Below are positions 1 through 57,978 of a DNA stretch of 58,200 nt, piece by piece (position 1 is the first letter of the stretch; every line of letters starts with the position of its first letter). The notes under the pieces are model-generated. The model saw only the letters and a list, made by a program, of their open reading frames with translations. It did not search any database and had not been told where the DNA came from. Source of the stretch: a virus (Duplodnaviria; Caudoviricetes); the IMG/VR virus record IMGVR_UViG_3300025889_000140, positions 1 to 58,200 of that record. One strand, given 5' to 3'. The translations under genes and the position numbers were made by a program.

Positions 1-47
1 TTTCAGCAGATGGCTCTTAATTCATATCTAACTAAAAACTATTAATT

Positions 48-155
48 ATGAAAGAAGAAATATTATATCAAATCGAAGAATTTGAAGACGGATATCTGTC
101 ACCTTATAGGTTAGTAGAAAAAATAAAGGAAATACTAAACAATACCACAGATTAA
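48..155 (+). CDS. small hypothetical early protein (35 aa)
   Basis: ATG at 48 after AT-rich leader; MKEEILYQIEEFEDGYLSPYRLVEKIKEILNNTTD*; stop TAA lies in stem I of hammerhead 1. Confidence 0.6.
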   Translation: MKEEILYQIEEFEDGYLSPYRLVEKIKEILNNTTD

Positions 156-206
156 CTGACGAGTCCTAAGAGGACGAAACACCTGAGTAATCAGGTGTCT
201 TAATCT
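149..206 (+). ncRNA. type I hammerhead ribozyme HH1
   Basis: agattaa-CUGACGA-gtcct/aag/aggac-GAAA-cacctga/gtaa/tcaggtg-UC-ttaatct; all core nucleotides and three stems present; predicted cleavage after C199 (GUC). Confidence 0.95.
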
Positions 207-220
207 TAAAATTTATTATT

Positions 221-562
221 ATGAAACACACCAGAGAAATCAACGGAGTCACCTACGATATTTTAAATCGTGGGTGGGAAACCAGTAGAGCATGGGGACA
301 CAAGTCTGAACTCTATGCTAATGGAAACTTTATTGGCGAAGCCAAGGTGAGATACTACAACAGAACATGGGAGTCCTACAGGTTTAGGTCTTGTATGCAG
401 AAGTTAGTAGGTGACTTGATTGAAGACAGAGAGAAGACCTATCTTCGTATCTACAAGGAAAACAATGGGATAAAAAGACTGACAGCCGACATGAAGCGTG
501 AAGCACTGGCTAAAGCAGATAACCCAGTAGGAAATTTATATAAACTTTACGAAACAATTTAA
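221..562 (+). CDS. hypothetical early protein
   Basis: 113-aa ORF, starts 21 nt after HH1 cleavage site. Confidence 0.8.
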   Translation: MKHTREINGVTYDILNRGWETSRAWGHKSELYANGNFIGEAKVRYYNRTWESYRFRSCMQKLVGDLIEDREKTYLRIYKENNGIKRLTADMKREALAKADNPVGNLYKLYETI

Positions 563-566
563 AACT

Positions 567-821
567 ATGAGTAAATTAAACCACAAAGCACAGAAGTTGA
601 TAGTAGAATACTTCAACCTCAACAACGGACACCCAGACGATGAGAATTACGACTGGAACTACTATGATATTCAAGGATATCAAGAAGACCTGGACGAAAG
701 TCCTGTAGAAGATGCTTTTGATATAGAGGATATTGAACATCTTCAGATGCGTATAAAATACCTACGCATGTACCATGAAGCCAAAGAAAAACTTAAAGTT
801 TATGGCCACGTGTACGCTTAA
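567..821 (+). CDS. hypothetical acidic early protein
   Basis: 84-aa ORF, tightly packed, stop abuts HH2. Confidence 0.75.
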   Translation: MSKLNHKAQKLIVEYFNLNNGHPDDENYDWNYYDIQGYQEDLDESPVEDAFDIEDIEHLQMRIKYLRMYHEAKEKLKVYGHVYA

Positions 822-886
822 GATTAACTGATGAGGGTTTATTATCCGAAACAGCTGTGCAATCTATTTGCATGGCTGTCTTAATC
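822..886 (+). ncRNA. type I hammerhead ribozyme HH2
   Basis: gattaa-CUGAUGA-gggt/ttatt/atcc-GAAA-cagctgtgcaa/tctat/ttgcatggctg-UC-ttaatc; predicted cleavage after C880 (GUC). Confidence 0.93.
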
Positions 887-901
887 ATTAAATTTTTTAT
901 T

Positions 902-1195
902 ATGAAAGTAACAATTTTACAACGTAGTGTATACTACAAAACGGCAGAGGTAGAGATAGACATAGACATGAATCTGTATGACCATTGGAGGTTAGACAAT
1001 GGTAAGTATGCAGACATAGGAGACTACCTAATAGAGAATGAAGACCTATGGTCTGACAAGATAGACCAAAAGCTAAGCGAGTCTGAATTCATCTTCGGAT
1101 TTGGAATGGATAGTAGTGGGGGTTGGGCAGACGCTGAGCTAGAGTCTGAATTCAGATACGAATGTGACGAACTAAAAATAGGAGGACACTTATGA
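902..1195 (+). CDS. hypothetical acidic early protein
   Basis: ORF track starts at GTG 857 inside HH2; ATG 902 (MKVTILQR...) follows the typical AT-rich leader, 21 nt after cleavage. Confidence 0.75.
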   Translation: MKVTILQRSVYYKTAEVEIDIDMNLYDHWRLDNGKYADIGDYLIENEDLWSDKIDQKLSESEFIFGFGMDSSGGWADAELESEFRYECDELKIGGHL

Positions 1196-1335
1196 AAATT
1201 AAACAGCACAAAATACTGCCGTCTGGACTTCATGCAATCCTGGACCAGAAAAATAGAGTACATATCTACACAGAGTTAGAATACCAACAGCTAACCTGGT
1301 GGCAGAAAGTTAAATTACAGAATGGTTGGAAGTAA
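1192..1335 (+). CDS. small hypothetical protein (47 aa)
   Basis: ATGA overlap with previous stop; MKIKQHKILPSGLHAILDQKNRVHIYTELEYQQLTWWQKVKLQNGWK*. Confidence 0.65.
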   Translation: MKIKQHKILPSGLHAILDQKNRVHIYTELEYQQLTWWQKVKLQNGWK

Positions 1336-1358
1336 ATTTACTATGCATGCATAGTATA

Positions 1359-1390
1359 TTTGGATATGTTCAAATTAAGTTTTATATTTG
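1359..1390 (+). promoter_or_regulatory. Bacteroidota sigmaA-type promoter
   Basis: TTTG (1359-1362), 20-nt spacer, TATATTTG (1383-1390); matches -33 TTTG / -7 TAnnTTTG consensus. Confidence 0.75.
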
Positions 1391-1410
1391 TCAAAATTAA
1401 GTTTAAAATT

Positions 1411-1659
1411 ATGAAATACACTAAAGAATATTGGGAATGGAACAATTCTCAAGATGACCTGCTCTTAAGAGCCAACCCAGATTTGATTTTTCAACTGCCA
1501 AAGGTTGAAACTACCACGTGTAAAGTCCTGGTAGTAAACCCCTCTAATTACAAGACAGACAAGGGGTATATAAGCAAGAACTATTGCTTTTGCAATCCTG
1601 CAACCACGTTTGTGGGTGACACCATTAAAGTAAGAACTAAATTTATTCAAAAATTATGA
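1411..1659 (+). CDS. hypothetical protein
   Basis: ATG 1411 (MKYTKEYW...) lies downstream of the promoter; track start at 1360 would overlap it. Confidence 0.65.
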   Translation: MKYTKEYWEWNNSQDDLLLRANPDLIFQLPKVETTTCKVLVVNPSNYKTDKGYISKNYCFCNPATTFVGDTIKVRTKFIQKL

Positions 1660-1841
1660 AAGAGCAATATAGAATTTTACGAAGAATGCAAGAAGATGGC
1701 TACAACGTAGTCACTTGCGGTAATTGTGGCGATGTAGTGTTATTGGAAGTAGATGACACTATTGAGGACGTTCAATGTCCACACTGCAAAGAGACTATGG
1801 ACTATAGCGACATGCCAGATTTATACCACCAGATTAACTGA
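1656..1841 (+). CDS. small zinc-ribbon protein
   Basis: CGNC...CPHC pairs; stop TGA lies within HH3 core CUGAUGA. Confidence 0.75.
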   Translation: MKEQYRILRRMQEDGYNVVTCGNCGDVVLLEVDDTIEDVQCPHCKETMDYSDMPDLYHQIN

Positions 1842-1889
1842 TGAGACTTGAGTAGTCGAAAGGGTAGGAATTTTCCTACTCTCTTAATC
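1832..1889 (+). ncRNA. type I hammerhead ribozyme HH3
   Basis: gattaa-CUGAUGA-gact/tgagt/agtc-GAAA-gggtagga/attt/tcctactc-UC-ttaatc; predicted cleavage after C1883 (CUC). Confidence 0.93.
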
Positions 1890-1917
1890 AGGCGAAAGCC
1901 ACTAAATTTATTTTATT

Positions 1918-2124
1918 ATGAGTATAGATATGATGAAAATGTTCATGCTCCTGGGGGACATGACAAATGAAGAGAGCTCCTTGGCTGACAAGGTAGCTTA
2001 CAAACAGCGTATAGCGTTTGCTACAATGCGTAATGCTATTCCAGACTGGCAACCACCTAGTGACTGGGACACACTTTCAGATGAAGTTAAGATGGAACGT
2101 CTAACGAAACTTATGGAAGTATGA
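1918..2124 (+). CDS. hypothetical protein
   Basis: 68-aa ORF downstream of HH3. Confidence 0.75.
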   Translation: MSIDMMKMFMLLGDMTNEESSLADKVAYKQRIAFATMRNAIPDWQPPSDWDTLSDEVKMERLTKLMEV

Positions 2125-2228
2125 ATGCACAAGAAAACCTGGTGGCTTACCTCGAAGCAAGAGTTGAGTCACTTGAAGCCAGGGTTAAAGAACTAGAAGA
2201 AGAAATTCAATCACTTAAAAGCAATTAA
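2121..2228 (+). CDS. short coiled-coil peptide (35 aa)
   Basis: ATGA overlap; MNAQENLVAYLEARVESLEARVKELEEEIQSLKSN* with heptad Leu/Val pattern. Confidence 0.6.
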   Translation: MNAQENLVAYLEARVESLEARVKELEEEIQSLKSN

Positions 2229-2245
2229 CTATAAAATTTATCACT

Positions 2246-2878
2246 ATGCCTAATCACGTTTATCACACAATCAAAGCTACGACAGACAAAGGTCGTAAAG
2301 TATTAAAAGAAATATCCAAAACCGAATACGGAATATGTGGATATGTAAAGCCAATGCCTAAAGACTTGACAGGAACAACAAGTCCACAGCGTATACCAGA
2401 AACAATATCAAGAGAAGAGTCTGACAGATTGAAAGATTTGTATGGCTACGATAACTGGTACGACTGGTGCTATAGAAACTGGGGGACAAAGTGGGGGTGC
2501 TATGACAACCATTATGATGAAGTCCAAGGGACTCTACATTTTGCTACAGCATGGTCACCTTTCAACTTTGATGTTCTTGATTTATTAACCAAGAAATTGC
2601 CAGACTTTATCTGGACCTGGGAAGAAGAGCAAGGATTTGGTGAAGAAGAAGAATTCCAGGACGGAGAATGCATACGTTCTTTCTCATGGGATTTGCCAGA
2701 GATATCAGATGACATTGTTGAGGTTGACGGAGTAGAATACATGGTCTTGCTATCTGACCACGTTACTCCAGACCAGACCTTTCCTGCAGGTTATTACCTG
2801 GCTTATGAGCCACTGGAAGAGGGTAGAATTGCTGAAACTTTAGAAGAATTAAACAAAAAAGTTTTGGACAATTCATAA
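2246..2878 (+). CDS. DUF1281/YubB ferredoxin-like domain protein
   Basis: MPNH start, YGYDNWYDW..NWGTKW and FATAWSP motifs typical of this family. Confidence 0.75.
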   Translation: MPNHVYHTIKATTDKGRKVLKEISKTEYGICGYVKPMPKDLTGTTSPQRIPETISREESDRLKDLYGYDNWYDWCYRNWGTKWGCYDNHYDEVQGTLHFATAWSPFNFDVLDLLTKKLPDFIWTWEEEQGFGEEEEFQDGECIRSFSWDLPEISDDIVEVDGVEYMVLLSDHVTPDQTFPAGYYLAYEPLEEGRIAETLEELNKKVLDNS

Positions 2879-2894
2879 ACATTTATTAAATTTA
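2863..2894 (+). promoter_or_regulatory. putative Bacteroidota-type promoter (variant -7)
   Basis: TTTG 2863-2866, 20-nt spacer, TAAATTTA 2887-2894, upstream of the recombination module. Confidence 0.45.
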
Positions 2895-2917
2895 CAATTC
2901 ATTAAACACTATTTTTT

Positions 2918-3124
2918 ATGGGAAGAACTAAAGAACTATTCGCAGATGTGCGACAGCAAGAGGCAGACAGGTTAGATGCCGACTATGAGTATCAACTTTG
3001 GCTATCAAAGGTAAGGTTTCATAGTAAATCCTTAACCAGAACTACAGAGGTCCTCGATGATTTATTCGAGGGTTTTGCTATGGCTATAAAGCATGGCCAG
3101 GAACAATCTAAACACTATAATTAA
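2918..3124 (+). CDS. hypothetical protein
   Basis: 68-aa ORF with AT-rich leader. Confidence 0.7.
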   Translation: MGRTKELFADVRQQEADRLDADYEYQLWLSKVRFHSKSLTRTTEVLDDLFEGFAMAIKHGQEQSKHYN

Positions 3125-3427
3125 ATGCACTATCCAATTTTTAGTGGGTACGTATCACACGTTTGTGACGTGTACTCCATTAGTCCAGTTGATTTGTTTG
3201 TTAAGAGTAAACGCAGAGATATAGTAGATGCCAGGCATCTGCTATATTTCCTTTGCTATGAAAGACCTATGCGTATTCGTTATATCCAACAATACATGGA
3301 AGAAAACGGATACAGAGTAGGTCACTCAACAATCATACATGGAATAAAACAGATAAAAGAGAAGTCAGAATATGATAATGACTATCAGAAAATAATTAAT
3401 GATATAAAAGAATGTATAACTCTTTAA
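3125..3427 (+). CDS. DnaA C-terminal (domain IV)-like HTH protein
   Basis: SKRRDIVDARHLLYFL...GHSTIIHG resembles the DnaA domain IV signature (R.R.i..aRq.amYl...dHtTv.ha). Confidence 0.7.
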   Translation: MHYPIFSGYVSHVCDVYSISPVDLFVKSKRRDIVDARHLLYFLCYERPMRIRYIQQYMEENGYRVGHSTIIHGIKQIKEKSEYDNDYQKIINDIKECITL

Positions 3428-3822
3428 GTAGTGTCTTTGAGGAAGCACTGAACGATGAAAAAGCAGCCAATGTAGATGGCAAAGGATATGAGTCCAGAAT
3501 TCTGCATGGCTGTAAGATTACAAGAGATAACGAGACAGGTAATGTGCTTATCCAGAACGTAGCTCTTGGTGGGGATTATTATAAACCTATTGACTATGAG
3601 TCGGAGTGGAAGTTTGTTGACAAAGGTTGGCGATATGGTGTTTATAATCTTTGTATTGAAACCTATCACATAAAATTAAAACGGATAGAGGAAAGAATAA
3701 AAGAAGAAATGAACACAAAGCAAAACCCTAAACAAATTCAGCACCTAAAGACTCACAGAGAGAGAATACTAAATATGTATAACACAATAAACAATAAATT
3801 AAAATCACTAAATTATGAGTAA
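3412..3822 (+). CDS. hypothetical protein
   Basis: 136-aa ORF overlapping neighbours. Confidence 0.75.
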   Translation: MYNSLSSVFEEALNDEKAANVDGKGYESRILHGCKITRDNETGNVLIQNVALGGDYYKPIDYESEWKFVDKGWRYGVYNLCIETYHIKLKRIEERIKEEMNTKQNPKQIQHLKTHRERILNMYNTINNKLKSLNYE

Positions 3823-4411
3823 TTCAAAATCAGTTTTCGAGACATTGAACTCTATCAATGTAAATGACAAAGTAGAAAAGAAGAACAACCTAACGTATCT
3901 ATCATGGGCATGGGCATGGGCAGAGGTTAAGAAAAATTATCCAACTGCCACCTATACAATCTATGAAGATGTGAATGGAATGTTCTACCATACCGATGGT
4001 AAATCTGCATGGGTAAAGACTGGGGTAACAATCAACGACCAGGAACATATTGAGTACCTACCTGTAATGGACTACAGAAACAACTCAATTCTTCTGGACA
4101 AAATTACTTCAGTAGATGTAAACAAAACAATACAGCGTAGCTTAACAAAAGCTATAGCAAGACATGGTCTTGGGTTGTATGTGTATGCAGGTGAAGACTT
4201 GCCAGGCGGTGAAACTAACGTAACATCAAAGAAACCTGTCGCTAAAAAGATGACAACGATTGAGCTAAATATAGGCGATGAAAACTGGGACAAAGTCCTC
4301 AAGTATGTAGTCGCTAACAAGAGCAAAGGTCTTAAGGTTATTGGCGAAGAGCTAAAGACAAAGTACAGCATGACTACAGCTGTTAAGAAAGAAATAGCAA
4401 ATGCAATATAG
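3815..4411 (+). CDS. Sak3/DUF1071 single-strand annealing protein
   Basis: LTYLSWAWAW and QRSLTKAIARHGLGLYVYAGEDLP motifs. Confidence 0.85.
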   Translation: MSNSKSVFETLNSINVNDKVEKKNNLTYLSWAWAWAEVKKNYPTATYTIYEDVNGMFYHTDGKSAWVKTGVTINDQEHIEYLPVMDYRNNSILLDKITSVDVNKTIQRSLTKAIARHGLGLYVYAGEDLPGGETNVTSKKPVAKKMTTIELNIGDENWDKVLKYVVANKSKGLKVIGEELKTKYSMTTAVKKEIANAI

Positions 4412-4413
4412 TC

Positions 4414-5145
4414 ATGAAAGATATCATCAAATTACTACAAGACGATAGAGAATACTATGATGGGGTTGGAAAGAATTATCTTTCTAACTCCAACATTGGT
4501 GACCTGTTAAAAAATCCTAAGAACTTTAATAAAAAGCAAGAGGATAATAAAAATTTCCTGGTGGGTAGATATTTCCATCAGTTAATTCTTGAGCCAGAGA
4601 AAGCACAGGCAGTGCCACATATTGACCTGGCCACACGAAGAGGTAAAGCTTACGATAGTTTCCTGGAAGAGCATGGTCTGGACATAGGATTGCTCACAAA
4701 AGAAAAACTAGAGACAGAAAAACTGGTTAATGAGATACTAAACGTGAATGACTTCAGAGATTTAATACGTGAGGACGGAGCTCAATATGAAGTGCCTATG
4801 ATTAAAGAAATACATGGCGAAATGTGGAAAGGTAAGGCCGATATTGTTGGCAGTAACCACCTGATTGACCTCAAGACTTCAAGTTCTATTGAAAAATTTA
4901 AGTGGAGTGTACGAGATTATAATTACGACAGCCAAGCTTACATCTACCAGGAGTTGTTTGGTAAGCCACTTGTTTTTCTTGTGATTGATAAGACAACACG
5001 TATGATGGGCATGTACCCAGTAAGCGATGAAAGTTTAGAACGTGGCGAGCAAAAGGTTATCAAAGCTATAGAGCAATACAGAAAGTTCTATGGTGACAAC
5101 CCCTCTGAAGATATAAATCAATTTTATTTCTATGAAGAAGTTTAA
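4414..5145 (+). CDS. RecE-like PD-(D/E)XK exonuclease (DUF3799-like)
   Basis: LSNS, GRYFHQLILEP, KGKADIV..IDLKTS, YDSQAYIY motifs; adjacent to annealase. Confidence 0.8.
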   Translation: MKDIIKLLQDDREYYDGVGKNYLSNSNIGDLLKNPKNFNKKQEDNKNFLVGRYFHQLILEPEKAQAVPHIDLATRRGKAYDSFLEEHGLDIGLLTKEKLETEKLVNEILNVNDFRDLIREDGAQYEVPMIKEIHGEMWKGKADIVGSNHLIDLKTSSSIEKFKWSVRDYNYDSQAYIYQELFGKPLVFLVIDKTTRMMGMYPVSDESLERGEQKVIKAIEQYRKFYGDNPSEDINQFYFYEEV

Positions 5146-5302
5146 AGATTATATAAAAAACTTATTTGATTATCAAGTAGGAAGACGTGTAATGTGGTTT
5201 GAAGTTCCGATGGACTGCAGAACACGTGAAGCAAAAGATGAAATCATCTTGAGCACTATAGAAACATTGGAACGAACTATTAATATTAATAATTATGAGT
5301 AA
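5132..5302 (+). CDS. small hypothetical protein (56 aa)
   Basis: MKKFKDYIKNLFDYQVGRRVMWFEVPMDC...INNYE* fills the gap and overlaps both neighbours. Confidence 0.6.
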   Translation: MKKFKDYIKNLFDYQVGRRVMWFEVPMDCRTREAKDEIILSTIETLERTININNYE

Positions 5303-5597
5303 TTCAAACACAAACGATGAAATTGTATTCGCAGATGGGTTCAAGTTCAGAAAGAAACACCCTAACCAAAAAGACTTTGTCTTGGGGAGTTTAAGTATCA
5401 AAGTAGATGATGCTATCACATTTTTAAAATCTAACCAGAAAAATGGTTGGGTAAACTTAGGTATCAAAGAAAGCCAAGCAGGTAATCCTTACATGTTTGT
5501 TGATAACTTTGAGCCAAAGTCACGTAACAACAATGCTAATGGAGTAGACACAGCTCCAAATCAAGCACCTGTTCAAGAGGCAGACCTGCCATTTTAA
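5295..5597 (+). CDS. putative single-stranded DNA-binding protein
   Basis: short beta-rich protein with flexible tail ending EADLPF (SSB-type tail), in a recombination module. Confidence 0.65.
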   Translation: MSNSNTNDEIVFADGFKFRKKHPNQKDFVLGSLSIKVDDAITFLKSNQKNGWVNLGIKESQAGNPYMFVDNFEPKSRNNNANGVDTAPNQAPVQEADLPF

Positions 5598-5606
5598 TTT
5601 AATATT

Positions 5607-5636
5607 GGGGGGGTGTGTAATGCACCTCCCTTTTTT
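5607..5636 (+). terminator. intrinsic terminator
   Basis: GC-rich hairpin gggggggtgt-gtaa-tgcacctccc followed by T6. Confidence 0.8.
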
Positions 5637-5801
5637 ATACTATGAAAAGATTAACAAAGATTTCAGCGTGGCTAACCATTGGGTTTATTTCCTTTCTGGT
5701 AGGCCGAACAATTATCAGACTTGTGTTAAGTTTTTTTTCTATATAGTAGTATTAGTTTAATATATTTATTTATATTTACTTCCTATATGTAGACTAAAAG
5801 T

Positions 5802-5872
5802 TAACATTTATAACATAACCACTGATAATCAGTAAGTTAAGTAACACAAAGTCGACACAAAGTCGACACAAA
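5802..5872. repeat. composite origin-like element, copy 1
   Basis: TAACATTTATAACAT, N5, CTGATAATCAGTAAGTTA (IHF-like WATCAR-N4-TTR), then 11-bp tandem acacaaagtcg x2.6; second copy at 56177. Confidence 0.7.
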
Positions 5873-5887
5873 TAAATTAAATTCAGC

Positions 5888-8305
5888 ATGACAGCAAAAG
5901 AAATCACAATTTTCCAGAACATTAAAGAGACCTCAACACCTTTCTTCAGAGACATAGATTTTATCTTAGAAAGAATAAAGTCTGGTGCGTCTAAAGACCT
6001 GGTGAAGAGGATAAGAACTGAGCAGAACAAGTCTCAGCGGAATGAACTAAAGAAAAACTTACCTGCTATTTGTTTTTCTGGCACGTTCAACAAAAGAAAT
6101 GACACTTCAATTATCCAACACTCTGGACTTATATGTTTAGACTTTGATGGGTACGAAAGCAACAAAGAGTTATTAACAGATAAAGAGAAGCTAACTAAGA
6201 GTAATTATATTTATTCTGTTTTTATATCACCATCTGGTAAGGGGTTGAAAGCACTTGTAAAGATACCTCAAGATGTAGACAACCACATAAACTATTTCAA
6301 TAGTTTAGAGATACACTTTAACAATCCTCACTTCGATGCAACGTGTAAGAACTTATCAAGAGTTTGTTACGAGTCATACGACCCATTGATTTATGTAAAT
6401 AAGAACTCAAGTGTATGGGAAGAGATTAAAGAAAAAGAATACACCGAGGTGAACACCAGGTTAGATGTTCCCACTATACCAATCACAGATGAGAATAAGA
6501 TTGTAGAAATCTTAGTGAAGTGGTGGACAAAAAAGTATCCTATGGTTGAGGGACAACGTAATAATAATTGCTATGTTCTGGCATCAGCGTTTAATGATTT
6601 TGGAATAAACAAATCATTGGCAGGATACGTACTCCAGAACTACAGAACATCTGATTTTTCTGAGAGTGAAATAAACCAGACCATAAACTCAGCGTATGCA
6701 CAGACTCAAAACTTTGGCACAAAGTATTATGAAGATGAAGAGAGAGTCAACAACATACGTGTAAAGCTCAGGCGAGGCACTTCTAAAAAGGAAATCAAAG
6801 CTCAGTTAGAGGACAGCCACATTGAAGCTAATGTTATAGAGGCCGTACTCAATAGAGTTGAAGAGGAAAATCAACAGAAACAATTCTGGACCAAGTCTGA
6901 AAAAGGAGTTATCAAGATTGTACATATTTTATTCAAGCAATTCCTGGAGGACAATGGCTTCTATAAGTATTGTCCAGAGGGTAGCAAGAATTATGTGTTT
7001 GTTAAGGTAACCAACAATCTTGTAGACCACACAGATGAGAAACAAATCAAAGACTTTGTTCTGAATAGTGTGATTGAGTTAGACGATGCTTCGATATATA
7101 ACCACTTTGCAGACCAGGTAAGGTACTTTAGAGAGGATTTCCTGACACTTCTGTCTACAATAGACATATACTTTGTCGAGGATAATAAGACCACCTCATA
7201 TCTTTACTATAATAATTGTGCTATAAAGGTTACGAAAGACAATGTAGAGATAATAGACTACATAGACCTCAATGGTTTTGTTTGGAAAGACCACGTCATA
7301 GACAGAGCTTTCAATAAATGCTCTATAGAGGGTTGTGATTACACAAAGTTTATTCATAACATCTGTGGTAATGAGCCAGACAGAATTAAATCAATGGAGT
7401 CAACGATAGGATTTCTTATGCATGGATATAAAAATCTAAGCTATTGTCCTGCTGTTATACTTAATGATGAGGTTATATCTGACAATCCAGAGGGCGGCAC
7501 AGGTAAAGGATTGTTTATGAATGCTTTACAACACATGAAGAAAGTTGTAACGATTGATGGAAAGTCGTTTACTTTTGAGAGGTCCTTTGCATACCAGTTA
7601 GTATCAGCAGATACACAGATACTGGTGTTCGATGATGTCAAGAAAAACTTTGACTTTGAAAGACTCTTCAGTGTTGTGACTGAGGGATTAACTTTAGAGA
7701 AGAAGAATAAAGATGCTATTAAAATTCCTTTCAGCAAGTCACCTAAGATTTCCATCACCACCAACTATGCAATCAAAGGAGCAGGTAATTCTTTTGCACG
7801 TAGAAAGTGGGAGCTTGAACTTCACCAGTACTACAACAAAAACTTTACTCCTCTTGATGAGTTTGGTAAACTAATGTTTGGTGATTGGAATGATGCCGAC
7901 TGGTGTAAGTTTGATAACTACATGGTTGGTTGTATGCAGGCCTATCTTGATACAGGACTAGTCAAAAGCAAGTTTGTAAATCTAAAAATCAGACAGCTTT
8001 CAGCAGAGTCTTCTTATGATTTCATTGAGTGGGTTGGACTTATCGAGGGTACAGATGCAGGTGCTGCTATACCAGTAAACTCAAGAATACACACCAACAA
8101 TCTATATCTAGATTTTATATCTGAGTATCCAGATTACGGACCAAAGTCCAGGCTATCTATATCTCAGGTCAGGTTTAATAAATGGCTAACAGCTTATGCT
8201 ATTTATAAAACAGGAGCTCAACCAGAAAAGGGTAGAGATGCTTCAGGTAGATGGATAAGATTGAAAAGAGAAGATGAAGTTAACGTGCAAACATCTATAC
8301 TATAA
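5888..8305 (+). CDS. primase-helicase (VirE_N/BT4734-like N-terminus, primase C-terminal domain, SF3/D5-like NTPase)
   Basis: LPAICFSGTF, HSGLICLDFD, FISPSGKGLK, SRVCYESYDP; GQRNN; Walker A GGTGKG, Walker B LVFDD, ITTN. Confidence 0.85.
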   Translation: MTAKEITIFQNIKETSTPFFRDIDFILERIKSGASKDLVKRIRTEQNKSQRNELKKNLPAICFSGTFNKRNDTSIIQHSGLICLDFDGYESNKELLTDKEKLTKSNYIYSVFISPSGKGLKALVKIPQDVDNHINYFNSLEIHFNNPHFDATCKNLSRVCYESYDPLIYVNKNSSVWEEIKEKEYTEVNTRLDVPTIPITDENKIVEILVKWWTKKYPMVEGQRNNNCYVLASAFNDFGINKSLAGYVLQNYRTSDFSESEINQTINSAYAQTQNFGTKYYEDEERVNNIRVKLRRGTSKKEIKAQLEDSHIEANVIEAVLNRVEEENQQKQFWTKSEKGVIKIVHILFKQFLEDNGFYKYCPEGSKNYVFVKVTNNLVDHTDEKQIKDFVLNSVIELDDASIYNHFADQVRYFREDFLTLLSTIDIYFVEDNKTTSYLYYNNCAIKVTKDNVEIIDYIDLNGFVWKDHVIDRAFNKCSIEGCDYTKFIHNICGNEPDRIKSMESTIGFLMHGYKNLSYCPAVILNDEVISDNPEGGTGKGLFMNALQHMKKVVTIDGKSFTFERSFAYQLVSADTQILVFDDVKKNFDFERLFSVVTEGLTLEKKNKDAIKIPFSKSPKISITTNYAIKGAGNSFARRKWELELHQYYNKNFTPLDEFGKLMFGDWNDADWCKFDNYMVGCMQAYLDTGLVKSKFVNLKIRQLSAESSYDFIEWVGLIEGTDAGAAIPVNSRIHTNNLYLDFISEYPDYGPKSRLSISQVRFNKWLTAYAIYKTGAQPEKGRDASGRWIRLKREDEVNVQTSIL

Positions 8306-12402: not shown

Positions 12403-12776
12403 TGACCGAAAAGGTAAAAGCTATAACTAAATTTACAGAAAGGTTTAAAGGTTCTTATAAAACATTAGGGCCTAATGATGTAGACTACAGAGTATATGAC
12501 CAAGCAAACAACCTTATAGCTTTTGTTTTGGTGATACCAATAAAAAAAAAGGTAACTGACTGCTACCCTTTATCTGTATCCTTAAATAAATTATCTCAGC
12601 TATCAATGAAACGTCTTAACCCAGTTATAATATGGGCTTGCGAAGATGGTATCATGTATGGTAAAGTAAAAGAAATATATGGAACTGTATCTTGGATGGG
12701 TACTACAGAACTGAACTCAGAGTTAGTAGTGCAGTACCCTAAACAGAAAACATTTAGATACGCTAGATATTATTAA
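12402..12776 (+). CDS. hypothetical protein
   Basis: 124-aa ORF; last + strand gene, converges on giant gene. Confidence 0.7.
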   Translation: MTEKVKAITKFTERFKGSYKTLGPNDVDYRVYDQANNLIAFVLVIPIKKKVTDCYPLSVSLNKLSQLSMKRLNPVIIWACEDGIMYGKVKEIYGTVSWMGTTELNSELVVQYPKQKTFRYARYY

Positions 12777-15700
12777 TCAAGACCCATAGCTGCGTCTATC
12801 TCTTTCTGGAGGTCACGCTTTCTTTTTCTCTCGTCTTTCTTTAGTTGCTCTACAGGAGCTAAGCTACCGCCTGGTCCGTACAATTCTTCATATAATCCAG
12901 GAGCAAATTTTTTCATATCTTTCTTGCTCATTCCCTTGCTTACACTACCTTTATTTTCAGGACGATATGATGGAGATATACCAAGCATGTCATAAACAGC
13001 AGGGTCTAAGTCCTCTTCTTCGCCACCGAAATAGTTGTATAATCCGATGAAAGGGTCAAGCTGTGCACCAATAGTTATCTCTGCTAAAGCTCTAGTCACA
13101 GCACCGATTTCACTTTCACCATTCTTGGTTAGCTTTCTGTACTTTTGCAATACACTAGCAACAGGATTTACAATATCATCATTAAATATTCTGCCTTTCT
13201 GCTTGTATTCTTCTCCTTTTATAGCAGAGATAACTCTACCAGCTACATCAAGTCCCTCTACTGTAGAGCCTAAGAATGGTATTTGATATATAAGGTTTAA
13301 TCCCATCATTGCTTCGGCCATTTTTTTAAGAGCTGCTTCCTTATCTTCATCATCACCCTTGATAAATTTAGCTATGTTAGACACACCTACAAACAATACG
13401 TTGGCAACAGCTAAGTTCAAAGCTAAATCTCTAGTGTCTTTTGAACGTGGTCTTTTCTTATTAGCCATGTCTCTTGTAATATTAGTAGTACTCTGCATAA
13501 CTTTATTCATCTGCAGGAATAATGTACTACCGAACATGGTAAATGCACGATTAAATATGTTACTATTCATTTGAAGTGGAATTTTATCTGTACCTCTTCT
13601 TGATTGCTGTGTAGCATTGTAATCATTAAAAGCTTTTACAGCATCGGCTTTACTCATTCCATTTGCAATGTTACGCTTGTAGTTAATCATGTAACCCATA
13701 ACCCCTAAGACATCACCAATTATTGTTGGTGAAGCTGCTGCAGTTTTAAACGCAGCTTGTGCTCTTTTAAGTTTACCTCCAGTAAGTGCGGTCTTCTTAA
13801 ATGTTTGCGAGCCAGATTCTAACCCATATACATCACCCTCTAGTCCTTGCTCAACCCTTTTTCTAAATGTAGGTGATATCTCCATAGCTTCTCTTATAGC
13901 TCCTTTCTTACCAACTAAATCTTTACCTAAGGACAAAGCTACTTTTGCTCCATCAATCATAAACATTGGCAAATCAACTGCTGCCTGTATAATTCTAGGA
14001 ACTCTAGAGTTGGCAGGGAAATAACTATAGTCAGAGTAAGCATTCACAAATGACGTTGCCTGCTTAAGTATCTGTATAGCTTTGAAAGCTAAAGCAAATC
14101 CTGTAAACTGAGTTTGTAATCTAGCTATAAGTTTTATACTTAGACTCGCATCCTTTCCAGAGTCTGGATTGATAGCAAAGTTAACAGCCTTTTTTATAGG
14201 CCCTGTTACACCCATCTCTTCTAGTAATACATTAACAGAGTCAATCTTAAATAAAGCATTCAGTCTCTGTGTACCTACAGCATACGCTTTATATTTCTCC
14301 ATTGTATCAACATGATTCTTAAGAACAGTTGTGAATGTTCCTGCGTGCAGGTCTACATCAGACCTCATGTCTACCCTTTCTTTAAAAGCAGGAGCAGATT
14401 CCGCATTGAACACACCATTGAAATCACCATCAGTAATCATCTTCTTGGTGGTCTCTTTCTGTATCGTTGATGTTGGGAAGTAGTTATTTACATATCCTAA
14501 ATTAACGTCATTAACGTAAGAATATACATCGTTAACACTCTCATAGTATTCATTGCTTAAGAAGTTTACAGTTTTATCAGTAAACTCTACAGCTTCTGGA
14601 CCTATGATACTTTTAATATTCTCTATAACCTCAGGAGTTATACCCTGAGCTTCAAGCTTCTGTCTTTGAACATCATTCAAGCTAAGTGCATATATACGCA
14701 TGAGTTCATCTGCATTAAACCTATCAGTATACTCTCGACCAGTATCACTACGCTTTAATTTTAAAACATGAACACCACTATTGAGTTTAGAATATATTTG
14801 TTTTGCTCCCTTGGTTATACCAGGGATTGTGTTTGCTATAGCATCAAGCTTGGCTTGAGTTTGGAATACACCAGCATTGTTAAGGTCATCCATTCTATTC
14901 AAAGCATCATAAACATTCTTGGTAAAAAAGTTTTTACCCTGAGTCACTCTGTCCAACACATTACTTAATGTGCCTAAGTGCTGGAACATTTGCTTCATGT
15001 TCTGAATAAACTCTTTGGCCGTACTAAATGCCATTCTCTCACCCAGTGCACTAAAAGCTTTACCTATTTCAAAGCTTCTGAAGTGAGAAAGTATCTCATT
15101 CTTTCTGGCGTTACGCTCATTTTTATTTAAAACATTTCCATCAGCATCAAACAACATAGGATTGGTATCCTTAATCTGAGCATCAGCCTCCTCTTTCATT
15201 TTCTTGTTTGCTTCTACTCTTGCTTGTCTTCTTGATTTAAACGTAGCAATTGATTCGGCTCTAACATCTTTCAGCTGTTGCATTAAGTCTTGAACTTCTT
15301 CCAAGCTCATGTTAGATACATCACCGAAAGTGTCCATAGCCAACGCTAAATTAACTTTGGCCTGCTCTTTTTGAGTTAACTTCTGTCCATCATTCTGCTT
15401 CTCTATAAGATTATTTATCTCGGTGCTTTCATTTTGCAGGTCCTGTTGTATTTTATTAAGGTCATCTATATCAGCTGTAAGTATTTGTTTTACAGCTTTG
15501 AAGTATGCTGTACCCTCTCGACTTAAACCTTTAGCTCTACGCTTACCAGACTTAGTGAATGCAGTCATAGCTTTTGCTTTGACTAGCTTAAGCATGTCCT
15601 TGACAAGAGCATTCTTCATTTTAGTCTTTTGCTGGTCTACAATCTTCATTACATACTCAGTATCTGCCTGGAATGTATCCACTGTAGACTTTGTAACACG

Positions 15701-18700
15701 TGATATAAGCCTGTTTATTTGAGCTTGAGTATACATCTTAGACTTTGGTAAAGCCTTTCTTATATAGTTTCTTAATTGTATCTGTGCGGCCTTTAAATTT
15801 TGGCTATTTATTTTACGCTGTCTTAGGTTGTTTTTAATCGCAGCTATTTCTTTTTGCACAGCAACATTAGAACGTGTGTTCAATGTCTTGTCAAAGTCTA
15901 CTAGAATCTCCATCTGAGTTTGTTCTGGCTGAGCTTTGTAGATTGGATTCTCTTTAATTAAATCCATTGCCTTTTGTCTAACCTCAGATAATGTTTTTTC
16001 TGGCGTAGTAAACTTAGAAAGCTTCTGTCTCACCTCATTAAACAACTGCATGCCCTGGCTAACACCACCCTCTACTCTGCCAAACGCTTCTGGCAGTGGT
16101 GTAAATGCATCAACCTTAACTTCCATAGCAGCGTTTATATCAGCAACTTTAAAGCCTCTGTCTTTTAAAACCTCTTTAATAGATGCGTCTGAGAATCCGT
16201 TCTGTCTTCCCTTATTTATAATAGCACCCATTGAATCTGTCTTACTGAATGCAGCATCAGGATTCTTAAGTTTTTTCTCCTGAGCTTTAGTAAGGTTTAT
16301 TTCTTTACCAGCAAAGATGTCAGCAAGTGCAGTTCCAAGGAATGTATCTAGATTCATATCCTGAATTTCTTCAGCCGTCAAATCTTTTGACATTTTAAAT
16401 TGAGACTTGATGTAGTTCCACATACCTAAAAGCCACTGAGTAAATTTACTCTTTACTGCTCCGTCTGCTATTGTCTGTCCTTTGTTTCCAATAAGGATAG
16501 CCATAGTTTCATTAGCGGCCTTTGCTTTGTCTCCGTTGAAGTTCTTAAGTTGCTTCTTATATTCTTCTGTTTGCTCTACAAGTTTTACACCTTGTGCATA
16601 TATAGCTTTTCCTTTCTTTGTAGTCTGTAAGTAGTCAGTCCACACGTGACCCATCTCGTGAATAGATGTGTTAAATAAAGCTGATTGAGAATTATGTACG
16701 TCTGGATTTACATATATATCACCATCAACAGTAACACCATATATAACCTCATCACCTTTCAGATATTTTTTTACACCCTCAGACTCCATAACATTATTAA
16801 ATGTTGAAGTGTCAGTGGATATGGTGACAGACGGAAAAGAAATATTCATAAAAGCATTTAGCTTAGCAACATTATCCATGTTGGTTTGCGCTAGTGCTCC
16901 CTCAAATTCGAGTCCAGGTAAGCCATATTGTACTCCTAATTTTTGCGTCAATATAGTTCCAACACTAGCTGGAGCAAGCTCACCCTCAACTAATTGCCCT
17001 TTACTTTTTTCTGCTTTTGTTTTTGTTACTCTATCTTGTTTCGTTTCAGCTGATGTTAATCCAGCCATAGCTAATCTATAAGCTTCTGGGTAGGTTTCAA
17101 TCAATGAAACTGGCTGCTCTAATATCCCTATGGTTTTTCCTTTAGGACCAAAAGGATAATTAGGGTGATTTGTTTCTATAACATCATCAACTGTTACATC
17201 AACCGCCTGTAATGCTATTATACTTCTTTGTGGCACATTAGCTAGTTGAGGCTCAGTAATAAGGTCTGTAATTTCCTGTATATGAGTTAAGCTAGCAGTC
17301 TCTGTGCTAGCCTCCATGCCCTCTAATAAAGCAAGCGCAACAGGCTTACCGCTTTTAGTTGGCATAGTTACCTTTTTCTTTGGTGCACCAGCTCTACGAA
17401 CTGAACCAGTAGTAATTCTTTTACCCAGTAATTCTCTTGTGGGTATATTTAATTGAGACAGAAACTCTGCGTTTAATATTTGTTCTATTGAACTCATATC
17501 TTTCATAGCTTCTATAACATTCTCTATGTTTGTTATTTCTTCTTGATACTTTTTTAAAGTCGTATCAGTACCCTGACCTTTTTTAATTGACTCTGCTCTT
17601 CTATTTGCAATATCTTGCAGGTCTTGTCTTAAAACCTCTAAAGCTTTTACTTTGTTTTCAGCAGGTACTTTAGACAGGTTGTCTTTAAGTACTCTAAAAA
17701 CAGCTTCATTTGAAGCTATAGAGCCCTCACCCATCTTAACGATGTTCATAGGAACATGTCCATTAAATTCTGGATTGTCTTTCCAGAACTTATCAAACAA
17801 TTCTTTGTTATCGTTGTATACTTTCTTTGCTTTGTCTAATAATCTTTGTGCTTCTTCTTTTGTAGTACTTGCCCACGCAGCGTTCTCATTTCCAATTGTA
17901 CCAGTAAATCCTAATCCACCTCTTAAATTATCTATGGTGTTTCCAGTAAAAATATTTACAATGTTACCTGTAGTAAGCTGGTCTGATATATTAAATATAG
18001 CAGGTATACCATTAATTACCTCTAAGGTTTTTATTGATGGAAGCTTTCTGTCTGTTCTGCTATTGAGTTCGTTAACATCAATAGTGCCCTCAGGTTTTAC
18101 CACAAGATTGGTAGACACGTTTCCTGACTGCGTTTCGTTGATTGCCTTAGTGACTGCATCTACTTCACCTTTTATAGGGGTAAATGAATCGTCTTCTTTC
18201 TTTCTGAAGTCTACCTTAGTATCGTCTAAGGAAGTTTCTAAATCAGCAACCTCTTGTGCTGCAGCAGTTGCGCTAGCTTGTAGCTCTTTTATTCCTGGCA
18301 GGTATTCTTCTGTAGTAATACCCTGGAACTTAGCGTCATTCTCTACTGCTTGGAGGAGCGAGTTATAAAGACTTGACCCAGTTTGTCGGTCAGCGGACCT
18401 TTTGCTCGCAGCTCGTCCAAGAATTTCTTTCCTTTTTCCCTGGTCGACATAGACGGAGTTGACTGGTCGGTAGTTTTGTTTTTCATAAGTAATATTATTA
18501 GCTTCTAATTCCTGTACAAAGATACCAATTTTATCTTGAAGAGTTGGGTCATCAAAGTCAAATATATTTATAAAACTTACTTCCCCTGTATCTTCGTTGA
18601 TAGTAAAATCAGTTATCCCTGCTTTTTTCAAAGCATCTATTGTGCCTTGAGTATCTGTAACATTTAATGTATATTCATTTCCATTGTGGTTTTCTGCTCC

Positions 18701-21700
18701 CTCTTCAACATAAGTAGCAGCAATGCTACTCTCTTGTGTTTCAGGAGCTAAGGCAGCTGCTAATGCAGCATATTCCTCTGCTTGTTCTATTGTTGCATTC
18801 TTCAATACAACTCTGTTAGATATCTCTACTATCTCTGTACCTGCATCGTTTTTATACCCACCGATACCCTCTTCAACTTCAACCTCTAATCCTAGTTGTT
18901 GTCCTATACCAGTTAAGTTGTTCTTATATTGCTGATAGCCCTCGCTTTCTCTTAACGTCTGTGCTTGTTCAGCACTCTCAATTGTAGTGTCGAAGAATGG
19001 AGCAACAGCTACGACTGTCTCTGGTTTAGTAGTAGGCGTTACAGTTATACCTAGTTTTTGTTTCTGGTCAGTAGTTAATTGAGCTATTTTTTTAGGATTG
19101 TTTACTTCAGTGCCACTTCTCTCTGATGTTTTTTCAAAGACCTCTTCACCAGGTGCAAAAACATCTTTCACTTGTTGTTCAGCAGTTATTCCATCTCTAA
19201 TAACTATATCATTGTCTGCAAGGTTTACGTCAAAAGCACCTGAGTCATCAATAAGAGTTCCATCTGAATCAAACCTTTTAACTCTTGCACCTGTACCAAA
19301 GGAGCCATCTAAGTATGTTTTTACAGTTACCTCTTGTCTACTTCCATCTTCATTAGTTACAGTAAATGTTTCTTCCTTTAAAACAACATTATTATCTTGA
19401 AACTTTTTAGTTTCAACTACCTCCTGCGTTTCGGTGGTCTCAACCCCTGGGGTTTCTTCGAGTGATACTTCTGTTCCCACTCCTGTGCCAATTGCGGCTT
19501 GTTGGCGTGCATCCACGCTCTCTGTTTCTGGCTTTTGAACGGCATTTATTTTATCATTTAATTGGTTAGCAACTTCTTCATCATTAACAACCTTACCATT
19601 GAACTTAGTCAGCTCACGAACACTCATTTTACCAAGCTTCTTTAAGAACTCTTGCTTGGTGTAACTCTTTCCGTCAATTACATACTGAGATAGACCAGCT
19701 CTAACATCACCAACCTCTACGCCTGGTGAGAATATAGATTCTATCTTTGCTCTCTTGTTGTCTGGAGCTAATGATTTGTTTTCTATAAGATATGCAATCT
19801 CTGCATTTATATCTTTTATCTTCTGACTAAACACTTCTTTACGATTAGTGTCTGCAGTATATTCTTCTTTGGCCGCTAACAATTCCATTAGTCTAGCCTT
19901 AACTCTTTTATTCTTAGGTCTGTTTTTACTTCTTCCAAAATCCAGCATATTATCTGCATCTTTAGATAGGCCTAAGTTTTTTTGTATACGTTGTCCTTGG
20001 TCTTCGTTAATCTTACCAAGTGCAAGCATATTATTTGTCCATGCTGATATTCTGGTGTCTGATTCTTTCTCGTTAACAATAAAGTTTATATCTGTAAGCT
20101 TAGAAGCAAGCTCTATGTTAGACATATTACGTGCATCTATAAGCTTGTTAACAGCCATCATACTGGCGTTGCTACCAAAACCACCGATACCCTCAGCCGC
20201 AATATCTTTCCAATCTAACTGGTCACCAACTACAACTTGAGCTGTTGCTTCACCAGCCATCTCACCAATAGGGTCAAAGATAGCACGTTCAGCTAATTGC
20301 GATGCAATTTTTTTAGTTCTTGTTGCTGTCTTACCTACCTTAAAAACACGACCAGCTAATCCTGAAGTAAAATAATCAACCATTGCAATTGGAATACCAC
20401 GTTTAAAACCACGTTCTTTAGCTAATGCCCATACATCTTCATCTTGTATAGCTAACTCAACGTCTTTAGCATCAAGAACATCATAGCCCTCAGATTCCAT
20501 AGCTGCAAAAAACTCATTAGTATATTCCATGGCTAAATTTGTCATAGCCATACCAGCTCTAGCTCCTTTTTGAGCTCCTAATACTGCTCCAGGAATTGCT
20601 CCAACCCCACCAGCAGTTGCTCCAACCCCTGCACCAACCCCTGCACCAGTCACTGTAGAAGCTGTTACTATTTCAAATCCATAAGGTAGCATCATAGCTA
20701 TAGAATTTGCAGCTAAAGACAATGCTAATTCTCCAGGGTTTCTTAAAAAAGCATCTAAGCTTTCTCTAAACCCTTTAGCCCTGTAGTATCTTGATAATGC
20801 TCTTGAATCTTTTTTACCTCTGTTTTTAGTCTTAAAAGCTACTATCATTTCAGCGGCTTTTTTTACATCTTCTGGATTGTCAAGGTCTAATGATTGAAAA
20901 TCAAAAGGCATACCAGTAGATAACTGAAGTATTACTTCAGCGGCATTACCATCATTAAGACCTTTCCGTATTTCGTTTAGTGCTGCAGAGAAGCCTGTCT
21001 CGAACTCACCCATAATACTTTTATCGTACTTAGCACTATAAAAAGTCTTAGCTGATTCATATATGTTTGCTGCATGTTGTTTCTCTGCATTGAGCGATGC
21101 GACCTGAACTTTGAAGCTGTCTAGTAATGCAGCTTCTCTCTCTGTTTCTGGCTTTACGTCTGTTAAGTTTTTTAGTTCAACACCAAAAGTTTCTAGTGCT
21201 TCAATTTCCAACGCTTCCTCAAAAGCTTTGGCTTGATAGTTTGCAATTGATGCGTCTTTAGCTAATGCTGAATATTTTTTCTGTAATAACAAGTCATATT
21301 TTTCTCTCAATTCTATCTTTTCTGATGTATTAACCTCAGAATATAAATCATCTTCTATTTTTTTAAGCTCTGCTAAAACCTCATCAGTATCATCTCTTAA
21401 AATACCATCGACATATAAGCCACCATAAAGTTTCTTTTGCTCAGGTGTTAGCTCTTCAATATAATCTGCTCCGAAATCTGCAACCTGAGATTCTATAAAA
21501 TCTATTTTATCTCTTACCTCTAAATACTTATCATATTTTGCTTGTTCAGTTTTAAAGTTTAGACCAGTATCTGAGTATAATTTTTTACCTACGGCATCTG
21601 TCGAGTGTGTGTCTTTCCACTCACCCTCTGCAAATCTTTGTGCTTCTTCTTCTGTATCAAACTGAAAAACCTCACCCCTTTCTTCAGCTACTTTTTTTGC

Positions 21701-56528: not shown

Positions 56529-56716
56529 ATCTCAAAGTTTTTGTAAAGATACAAAATTTATTAGATACATAGGGGTTGGAGGTTCCACTGCGCCACACGC
56601 AAACCGACCCACAACGGAAAGCGATATTTTTTTTGCCACCCCCCATAGCGATTTGTTCCCTGCACTCTGGATTTTTTTGCCTTTTTTTTTGACCTGTCCT
56701 ACCCTGGTAGTCCTAT

Positions 56717-56794
56717 CCCCTTACCCCTGTCCTGTCCAGGTTACACAAACCCCTTACCCCTGTAGGATTTCCCCCTATATCCCCCCATATCCCC
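56717..56794. repeat. C-rich repeats (G-runs on - strand)
   Basis: ccccttacccctgt at 56717 and 56750; C5/C6/C4 runs at 10-nt spacing 56771-56794. Confidence 0.7.
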
Positions 56795-57003
56795 TAACGT
56801 TTACCAGATAAACTTCTTAAGAAGCACAGAGAAGTGCGTTAATCTCTCGCCCAGTTTCCAGTTGTCTAAACATTTAACAGGGAACAAAGACAGATAATGC
56901 GTTGATATTCAATAAGTTAAGTGCGAAAGAACACAATTTTTATTAGAATGATTATAAATTAAAAAAATTTTCCAGGTTAAAATGCATTTTTTTTAAAAAA
57001 CCA

Positions 57004-57066
57004 TTAGGAATTTACAAAAGTATTAAACTATATTTGTACCAGAATTGAACGCTCATTGACATATTG
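57004..57066 (+). promoter_or_regulatory. early promoter plus boxA-like element
   Basis: TTAG-N21-TATATTTG (57029-57036) after A/T tracts; GCTCATTGACATATTG at 57051-57066. Confidence 0.65.
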
Positions 57067-57518: not shown

Positions 57519-57532
57519 ATAAATTTTATATC

Positions 57533-57964: not shown

Positions 57965-57978
57965 TAAAATTTATTATT

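Follow-up and report, generated by a model that had tools for sequence, protein, structure and literature searches.

Introduction

Hammerhead ribozymes that lie close together among phage genes have been described before. Perreault et al. (2011; PMC3088659) reported prophages in which multiple hammerheads flank individual genes or short runs of genes, with examples in Clostridium scindens, in Azorhizobium caulinodans and at the ardA locus of Agrobacterium tumefaciens, proposed that long phage transcripts are processed into gene-length mRNAs, and found that triple arrays cleave both in vitro and in E. coli. The same paper describes a hammerhead variant of the haloviruses HF1 and HF2, which is found in the early polycistronic transcript, 13 nt ahead of the start codon for the helicase, and whose cleavage site is within 3 nt of a mapped 5′ end. 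In the fusarivirus PtFV1, an intergenic type I hammerhead cuts 7 nt upstream of the start of open reading frame (ORF) 2 (PMC13725137). The function of bacterial and phage hammerheads is still debated, and in the available text of a 2019 review (PMC6765202) the processing of polycistronic transcripts is still an unproven suggestion on which more work is needed. Here we examine an array of four type I hammerheads in a 58,200-base sequence of a tailed phage, IMG/VR record IMGVR_UViG_3300025889_000140 (the window, by which we mean the whole of this stretch). The array was first proposed from the sequence alone, and we refer to that proposal as the original prediction.

The hammerheads of the window, and those of its relatives, resemble the prophage clusters of Perreault et al. 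in lying close together, on the strand of the genes, and in flanking genes or short gene blocks in phage DNA, and the processing role proposed for them is the same. The array is a further example of this known arrangement, and the novelty that the original prediction had implied for an array punctuating phage genes has to be given up in view of the clustered hammerheads, the identical hypothesis and the tested triple arrays in that paper. It differs from the prophage clusters in that the window is a virion-type genome, presumably of a lytic phage with marine Flavobacteriia-like hosts, and in that its copies are all type I, share one stem I, have a stop codon overlapping stem I and are followed by a leader of fixed length. 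Relatives of the window reach nine copies in 4.3 kb, whereas triple arrays are described in the available text of Perreault et al., the supplementary lists of which may hold larger ones. As in HF1/HF2, the ribozymes are found just upstream of start codons in the early region of a tailed virus, but the halovirus element occurs only once, has a variant core, belongs to a lytic virus of archaea and is not part of an array. As in PtFV1, a type I hammerhead fills a short spacer and the predicted cut is just upstream of the next start codon; PtFV1 is, however, a fungal RNA virus, and the role proposed there is in eukaryotic translation initiation. The literature searched contained no paper on hammerhead arrays in Flavobacteriia phages, though the supplements of papers may tabulate such arrays, and no functional proof of a processing role for hammerhead arrays.

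Among the Rfam families, RF00163 (Hammerhead_1) and RF03152 (RAGATH-1-hammerhead) have the same core and the same type I topology and provide the best matches to the window units, but the additional 5′ hairpin of RAGATH-1 is absent from these units or poorly matched, and the scores stay below the gathering threshold. Two further systems offer working likenesses. The early mRNA of phage T7 is cut between cistrons by RNase III, and RiboJ is a synthetic insulator in which a ribozyme and a hairpin precede the ribosome-binding site. The comparison with T7 made in the original prediction is fair as a description, as intercistronic cleavage, hairpin-protected 3′ ends and defined 5′ leaders are common to both, the window version being protein-free. 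Hammerhead 3 of the window, with a GNRA hairpin between the ribozyme and the start region, mirrors the RiboJ layout; this is a natural arrangement and no homology is implied.

Four type I hammerheads in the window

In our reading, which we consider likely to be correct, the window carries functional type I hammerheads in the hypervariable first part of its + strand operon, and these cut the transcript into units with defined ends. Hammerheads were sought with a descriptor in which CUGANGA is followed by hairpin II, then by GAAA and by a hairpin III that has A15.1-U16.1 as its closing pair; any residue except G was allowed at H, and stem I had to have at least 3 bp. Four units were found on the + strand of the window and none on the − strand, a match at 1835–1918 being an alternative parse of hammerhead 3. 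These are exactly the four complete type I hammerheads of the original prediction, which had also placed all of them on the sense strand and had named the same cleavage sites (after 199, 880, 1883 and 57957).

Each unit consists, in order, of the 5′ strand of stem I, the core CUGA(C/U)GA, the hairpin of stem II (13 nt), GAAA, the hairpin of stem III, and GUC or CUC, with (A)GAUUAA/UUAAUC(U) forming stem I. The core residues C3 U4 G5 A6 N7 G8 A9 and G12 A13 A14 are present in all four, with C at N7 in hammerhead 1 and U in hammerheads 2–4, and stems II and III are closed throughout by G10.1-C11.1 and A15.1-U16.1, respectively. All four copies have GAUUAA/UUAAUC in stem I, and stems II and III differ between copies. 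The units lie within approximately 2.5 kb across the ends of the record, all of them between small orphan genes, and they bound blocks of two and four ORFs.

This occurrence is not random. In 200 dinucleotide-preserving shuffles, the mean was 0.125 descriptor matches on both strands, and no shuffle had more than the single match seen in 25 of them. When the units were folded in isolation, the minimum free energy structure was the three-way junction, with helix I open and II and III looped, in every case. A covariance model was built from a seed of eight hammerheads of this clade, of which only hammerhead 4 is from the window. It scored the window units at 53.2–78.1 bits, the next best match in the 58.2 kb, on both strands and with filters off, being 11.3 bits. 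As motifs, the four units are genuine type I hammerheads, well supported by the comparative evidence that follows.

Conservation and copy number in related phages

Related loci, 67 in all, were fetched from viral contigs that encode a Sak-like protein. The descriptor identified 29 hammerheads in ten of the 67; every one is on the strand that carries the Sak gene, and the opposite strand gave none (1.08 Mb). The original prediction had proposed such a search of related contigs, and in the window and the 67 loci together (1.14 Mb, both strands) the covariance model gave 31 matches at E≤0.01, again all on the Sak-gene strand. Four of these are in the window, nine in L007, four in L006, three each in L011 and L019, two in L015, one in L005 and one each in L065, L066, L067, L069 and L070. 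Matches found by the descriptor only were L019:4458, L066:5032, L067:4126 and L069:4521 (2-bp stem II, 14-nt loop), and two variants in L015 were found only by the model. These two (L015:3867–3919 and 5495–5547; 39.4 and 41.1 bits) have CUA as the cleavage site, with U.U replacing the G10.1-C11.1 pair, and may be weakened or differently tuned copies.

Among the 30 distinct sequences from the window and its relatives, 99.2 % of cells form standard pairs, as against 68.4 % with shuffled partners and 26–42 % when slid by 1–3 columns, and double-sided changes occur in 15 of 17 pairs, across all three helices. The residues C3, U4, G5, A6, G8, A9, G12, A13 and A14 are invariant in all 30, N7 is U in 24 and C in six, and H17 is C in 28, A in two and never G. 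The closing pair A15.1-U16.1 is kept in all 30 and G10.1-C11.1 in 28. Stem II with its loop measures 13 nt in 30 of the 31 aligned copies, and stem I is 6–8 bp long. The original prediction had argued from stems that differ in sequence and still pair that RNA structure is under selection, and had staked itself on the core being conserved in related phages; the compensatory changes in all three stems and the invariant core bear out both points.

Positional orthologues, which are independent of the model, show the same trend of paired stems with changed sequence. In the unit ahead of the gene at 57979, stem III is CCACCU/AGGUGG in the window and CGCC/GGCG in L007 (L007:3801–3850). The positional orthologues of hammerhead 2 are L007:7468–7532 and L006:2350–2414, with a C-G to U-A exchange in stem III relative to L006, and those of hammerhead 3 are at L005:470, L006:2896 and L007:8014. 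The 3′ strand of stem I, TTAATC, is identical in all 17 copies of L005, L006, L007 and L011.

When whole records were considered, nine copies were found within 4.3 kb of a 51-kb relative and four in another. Five deposited phage records were also searched whole, and the only positive was Flavobacterium phage vB_FspP_elemoF_6-3D, with a single copy of 41.3 bits and a weak stem II. This hammerhead (L192:3959–4016) lies under gp66, a 108-nt CDS annotated on the opposite strand (L192:3924–4031; NC_055853.1), and that annotation is probably spurious.

The array of the window may be larger than four, because L007 has three further hammerheads between the positions that match the two ends of the window. 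The last and first bases of the window align to L007 4090 and 5406, and the intervening 1.3 kb includes hammerheads at 4204, 4440 and 5226, so that the missing ~4 % of this genome may hide more copies. Nor are such arrays confined to this clade, since L129, an unrelated 82.7-kb viral contig, has seven hammerheads in 5 kb near one end, all on one strand and each with a conserved leader of its own type. A 14-mer scan of viral contigs, which is no census, gave at least 119 stretches. Among the 119 listed, 12 have a hammerhead-like unit by the descriptor, one of which (L082) looks spurious; the other unrelated viral contigs among the listed matches have 2–6 copies each, and each contig has its own conserved leader, one of them containing a Shine–Dalgarno-like AGGAG.

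Anatomy of the units

The 31 units share a fixed architecture in which a stop codon, the ribozyme and a leader of about 21 nt follow one another. The stop codon of the upstream ORF is no more than 15 nt from the first base of the hammerhead in 23 of the 31. In 12, the UAA within the stem I 5′ strand GRUUAA doubles as the TAA stop of the upstream ORF; two have the core's first UGA as the stop, and in the others it is a few bases away. The next ATG lies 18–23 nt beyond the predicted cut in 18 units, the spacing being 21 nt for three of the four in the window; in seven of the 31 the spacing is 30–34 nt, and six of these have an inserted small hairpin, either GGCGAAAGCC or its compensated form GCCGAAAGGC. 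In the window, the GNRA hairpin GGCGAAAGCC is found at 1891–1900 and again at 57509–57518, 14–17 nt upstream of two start codons, the second copy preceding the first gene of the + strand block without a ribozyme. Compensated variants occur at the same place in other phages (GCCGAAAGGC in L011, GTCGAAAGAC in L157). The hairpin may stabilise the 5′ end, or it may act as a spacer that keeps the start region exposed.

The leaders are A/U-rich and contain no Shine–Dalgarno motif, as is expected for Bacteroidota hosts. The start at 902 was selected on the basis of leader conservation; an in-frame GTG at 857 and an ATG at 872 fall inside hammerhead 2. On the − strand, opposite hammerhead 1 and its leader (133–231), there is a sub-threshold match to the Bacteroidetes FopS small RNA (27.8 bits against a threshold of 56), which probably just mirrors a Bacteroidota-style A/U-rich start region. 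The coordinates of the units and of the flanking ORFs are listed in Table 1.

Table 1. Hammerheads, leaders and neighbouring features in the first part of the + strand block, in order of transcription across the record ends
Feature	Position	Strand	Details
First ORF of + strand block	57533–57910	+	125 aa, orphan; TAG stop overlaps 5′ edge of hammerhead 4
Hammerhead 4, type I	57909–57964	+	Stem III 7 bp; predicted cut after C57957 (GUC); 78.1 bits, seed member
Leader 4	57958–57978	+	21 nt, to ATG 57979
ORF after hammerhead 4	57979–58167	+	62 aa, orphan; 86 % identical to ORF following L007:3801
ORF before hammerhead 1	48–155	+	35 aa; TAA stop is the UAA of stem I 5′ strand
Hammerhead 1, type I	149–206	+	Stem I 7 bp; stem II 5 bp, 3-nt loop; stem III 8 bp, 4-nt loop; predicted cut after C199 (GUC); 59.2 bits, outside model seed
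Leader 1	200–220	+	21 nt, A/U-rich; opens with stem I 3′ strand UUAAUC, ends at ATG 221
Two orphan ORFs between hammerheads 1 and 2	221–562, 567–821	+	Unit 221–821
Hammerhead 2, type I	822–886	+	Stem I 6 bp, stem II 4 bp, stem III 12 bp; predicted cut after C880 (GUC); 53.7 bits
Leader 2	881–901	+	21 nt, to ATG 902
Unit between hammerheads 2 and 3	902–1841	+	ORFs 902–1195, 1192–1335, 1411 (or 1366)–1659, 1656–1841
Promoter-like site	1359–1390	+	TTTG ... TAnnTTTG; weak evidence
Hammerhead 3, type I	1832–1889	+	Stem III 9 bp; predicted cut after C1883 (CUC); 53.2 bits
Leader 3	1884–1917	+	34 nt; GNRA hairpin GGCGAAAGCC at 1891–1900; ends at ATG 1918
ORF after hammerhead 3	1918–2124	+	68 aa, orphan; continuous synteny with relatives from here on

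Proposed processing of the transcript

It is plausible that the RNA is cut in vivo and that the region is transcribed as one early polycistronic RNA. Each unit would fold on the nascent RNA by forming stem I, the 13-nt stem II hairpin and the variable stem III hairpin, and would cut 3′ of the NUC triplet. Hammerhead cleavage generates 2′,3′-cyclic phosphate and 5′-OH ends. The upstream RNA would end in the hairpins of stems II and III with the cyclic phosphate, and the downstream RNA would have a 5′-OH, followed up to the ATG by a uniform A/U-rich leader that is unstructured and ~21 nt long, or ~34 nt where the GNRA hairpin is included. A stem I of only 6–7 bp would fall apart after the cut and free the start region. 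In this way the transcript would be split into units of one to four genes, and we infer that the stability and translation of each would be uncoupled from the upstream context, because a 5′-OH at one end and hairpins at the 3′ end give resistance to end-dependent RNases, and stem I no longer holds the start region.

We argue that the creation of a defined 5′ end is as important as the separation of cistrons, because the hammerheads bound two- and four-ORF blocks and not every gene, and because in L005, L006 and L007 a promoter-like stretch is located directly upstream of the hammerhead 3 orthologue, where the ribozyme would trim the 5′ end of the primary transcript. In the window, the corresponding site is separated from hammerhead 3 by a two-ORF stretch (1407–1830) that is an insertion relative to these three loci. 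The site follows the pattern TTTG ... TAnnTTTG, which we take to be the Bacteroidota promoter consensus. The internal promoter is treated as weak because the pattern is no commoner in the window than by chance (four matches to TTTG-N17-22-TAnnTTTG, 3.42 expected).

RNA-derived sequence was available from four marine metatranscriptome runs in two studies (0.07–0.27 of sampled words), the contigs coming from relatives that are 90–99 % alike. Contigs that span predicted cuts were found in X1 (record 1, 401–940), X2 (record 8, 762–921), X3 (record 16, 760–909, and record 19, 1680–1948) and X4 (record 27, 1770–2170); they may derive from DNA or from rare uncut precursor, and contigs cannot show RNA ends.

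A number of points weigh against functional self-cleavage, beginning with the fact that cleavage of the window units is a prediction from their sequence. Stem I is short and A/U-rich, and when 20-nt flanks were included it was kept in the minimum-energy fold of two of the four units and lost to alternative pairings in the other two. A ribosome terminating at a stop codon in or beside stem I would compete with folding. Natural hammerheads depend on a tertiary contact of loop II with stem I to cut fast at physiological Mg2+, and none was identified in the window units by inspection alone. The counts of covariation and core conservation come from matches that were chosen and aligned by a model that rewards the hammerhead core and structure, and are biased in its direction. 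At gathering thresholds, no Rfam model matched the window, and none matched nine related loci (141 kb in total), despite the presence of 23 of the clade-model matches in the window and those nine loci. Finally, L008, L009 and L010, which are syntenic through the same small genes, have no hammerhead by the model with filters off, and a search of the whole record MW202828.1, the closest deposited relative, found none. Hammerhead processing must be dispensable, given that syntenic close relatives are without it.

The Rfam search had been proposed as a check by the original prediction, which fails it at gathering thresholds and finds agreement only beneath them. In E-value mode, RAGATH-1-hammerhead matched all four units (28.2, 28.1, 20.6 and 22.7 bits, gathering 56.3), two of the four matches being local from model position 26 and the 5′ hairpin being aligned with gaps in unit 1. 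Hammerhead_1 matched unit 1 (22.5 bits) and unit 4 (20.5 bits; gathering 34), the alignment of unit 1 stopping at 188, before the true stem I is reached; this model reported neither unit 2 nor unit 3. We read the low RF00163 scores as a limit of the Rfam model, because every structural feature of a hammerhead is present, and the case shows that the Rfam gathering thresholds miss canonical phage hammerheads.

The clade is an unusually clean natural series in which near-identical backbones have 0, 1, 3, 4 or 9 copies, and the fixed architecture of the units should aid the question of what hammerheads do in phages. The cultured vB_FspP_elemoF_6-3D, with its single copy, is a usable relative for end-mapping and for mutants.

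Alternative roles of the array

The same low Rfam scores, the failure to identify a tertiary contact by inspection, and a terminator-like scan that flags stem III of unit 1 together with a U-rich run (179–198) are in keeping with units that are hammerhead-shaped and catalytically idle, and that would act as structured spacers by stabilising 3′ ends as hairpins, by signalling a pause or termination, or by binding proteins. We regard this as highly improbable. All catalytic core positions are kept in the 30 distinct copies while the stems change freely, and hairpins alone would not need CUGANGA ... GAAA ... UH, so that an idle role is hard to sustain in the face of an invariant core. Equally far-fetched, in our estimation, is the proposal that paired hammerheads release RNAs which are then circularised, by self-ligation or by an RtcB-type ligase, to give circular mRNAs. 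It is conceivable because, with stem I shared, the 5′-OH end made by one unit could base-pair to the 5′ strand of stem I in the following unit and so re-form a hammerhead that spans the fragment ends, and it draws on the constancy of stem I in the four window copies while stems II and III vary, on the unchanged TTAATC of the 17 copies in L005, L006, L007 and L011, and on the established end chemistry of hammerhead products, which suits ligation. The arrays of more distant phages (e.g. L188, L066 and L019), on the other hand, mix stem I sequences, and no back-joint from ~1889 to ~206 is listed among the contigs, which are a poor test of it. According to the available text of Perreault et al. 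(2011; PMC3088659), spliced or circular products were sought and none were found.

A possible additional role, which would leave cleavage in place, is that the hammerhead and its leader (~75 nt) serve mainly as a standard, exchangeable module boundary, the selected benefit being modularity. Such a boundary would close upstream frames (UAA in stem I, UGAUGA in the core), insulate the next gene and provide a short homology for recombination by the Sak-like protein and the exonuclease, so that orphan early genes could be swapped as cassettes. High-scoring segment pair (HSP) ends do tend to fall at unit edges. All five ends relative to L006 (215, 821, 820, 1406, which maps to the edge of the L006 hammerhead, and 1831) and four of the eight relative to L007 (57908, 221, 1406 and 1831) are so placed, most breakpoints coinciding either with the base that opens a hammerhead or with the ATG that follows a leader, and the window-specific insertion at 1407–1830 abuts the start of hammerhead 3. 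The sample of breakpoints is nevertheless small and without a control, and junctions in mosaic phage genomes are generally at gene boundaries, whether or not there is a ribozyme. Relatives with syntenic downstream genes have between 0 and 9 copies, copies are 78–90 % identical over ~75 nt within and between genomes, and the genes for the Sak-like protein and the exonuclease are 2–3 kb downstream. Metatranscriptome contigs also join hammerhead halves to other neighbours, though some of these joints are possibly mapping artefacts between similar repeats. Modularity alone would not explain an invariant catalytic core, and we think it rather unlikely that it is the main benefit. Along the same lines, and with a similarly low expectation, one can picture a kit of parts in which a ~75-nt unit ends upstream translation, cuts, and supplies a standard 5′-OH leader, while the Sak/exonuclease pair shuffles orphan genes at these points. 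If that were true, the variation from 0 to 9 copies among near-identical backbones would be a trace left by gene exchange between ribozyme boundaries, and not simply by the trimming of mRNA.

The phage, its host and the genes around the array

The window is an entire IMG/VR virus record, classed as linear, with a completeness estimate of 96 %, and its identity as a phage is evident from family matches to portal, terminase, primase/helicase, Sak and exonuclease. The + strand block extends from 57533 past the end of the record, resumes at base 1 and continues to ~12.4 kb, with genes for the Sak-like annealing protein, exonuclease, primase/helicase and helicase. The − strand, from ~12.8 to 56.0 kb, encodes the portal, the large terminase, structural proteins and a GroEL-like chaperonin. 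No tRNA genes were found in the window. By primase/helicase, the closest deposited relative is the uncultured podovirus MW202828.1 (70 % identity), followed at greater distance by phages of Flavobacterium, Polaribacter, Maribacter and Cellulophaga; a megablast search of bases 1–6000 against deposited phages gave no match. Because the nearest cultured relatives infect Flavobacteriia, the host is probably of Flavobacteriia type. The phage is tailed, with a genome of ~58 kb, and presumably lytic. The runs that contain related sequence carry the label marine metagenome.

The first 2.5 kb of the + strand block contains only small ORFs, none with a Pfam or PHROG family, and no family was found at E≤0.01 for the ten small proteins that are flanked. 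Among these ten, only the product of ORF 1656–1841, which has two CxxC pairs, gave sub-threshold matches (zinc-ribbon/DUF5817), and this ORF stops at the first UGA (1839–1841) of the CUGAUGA core of hammerhead 3. No homologue of ORF 48–155 was found in the relatives compared.

A conserved non-coding element (57364–57500, +) is found just upstream of the first gene of the block and is 77 % identical to L007:3326–3470 and 69 % identical to L157. RNAalifold of the three sequences predicts 27 pairs, of which 11 show compensatory changes; the element has no match to an Rfam family at E≤5, and the long leader in which it lies (57045–57532) is not unusually stable as a whole (z = −1.20).

Three further features lie outside the array. 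The GroEL-like chaperonin (54436–56037, −) matches PHROG 5725 (E 4e-135), and a groEL gene is also annotated in MW202828.1. A 3313-aa ORF (12773–22714, −) has a short DUF6861 match as its sole Pfam match. The divergent region between the two gene blocks includes a C-rich, ORF-free stretch (56560–56800) with a 33-nt tandem pair (56693–56758) and repeated CCCCTTACC motifs, which may be an origin or packaging region.

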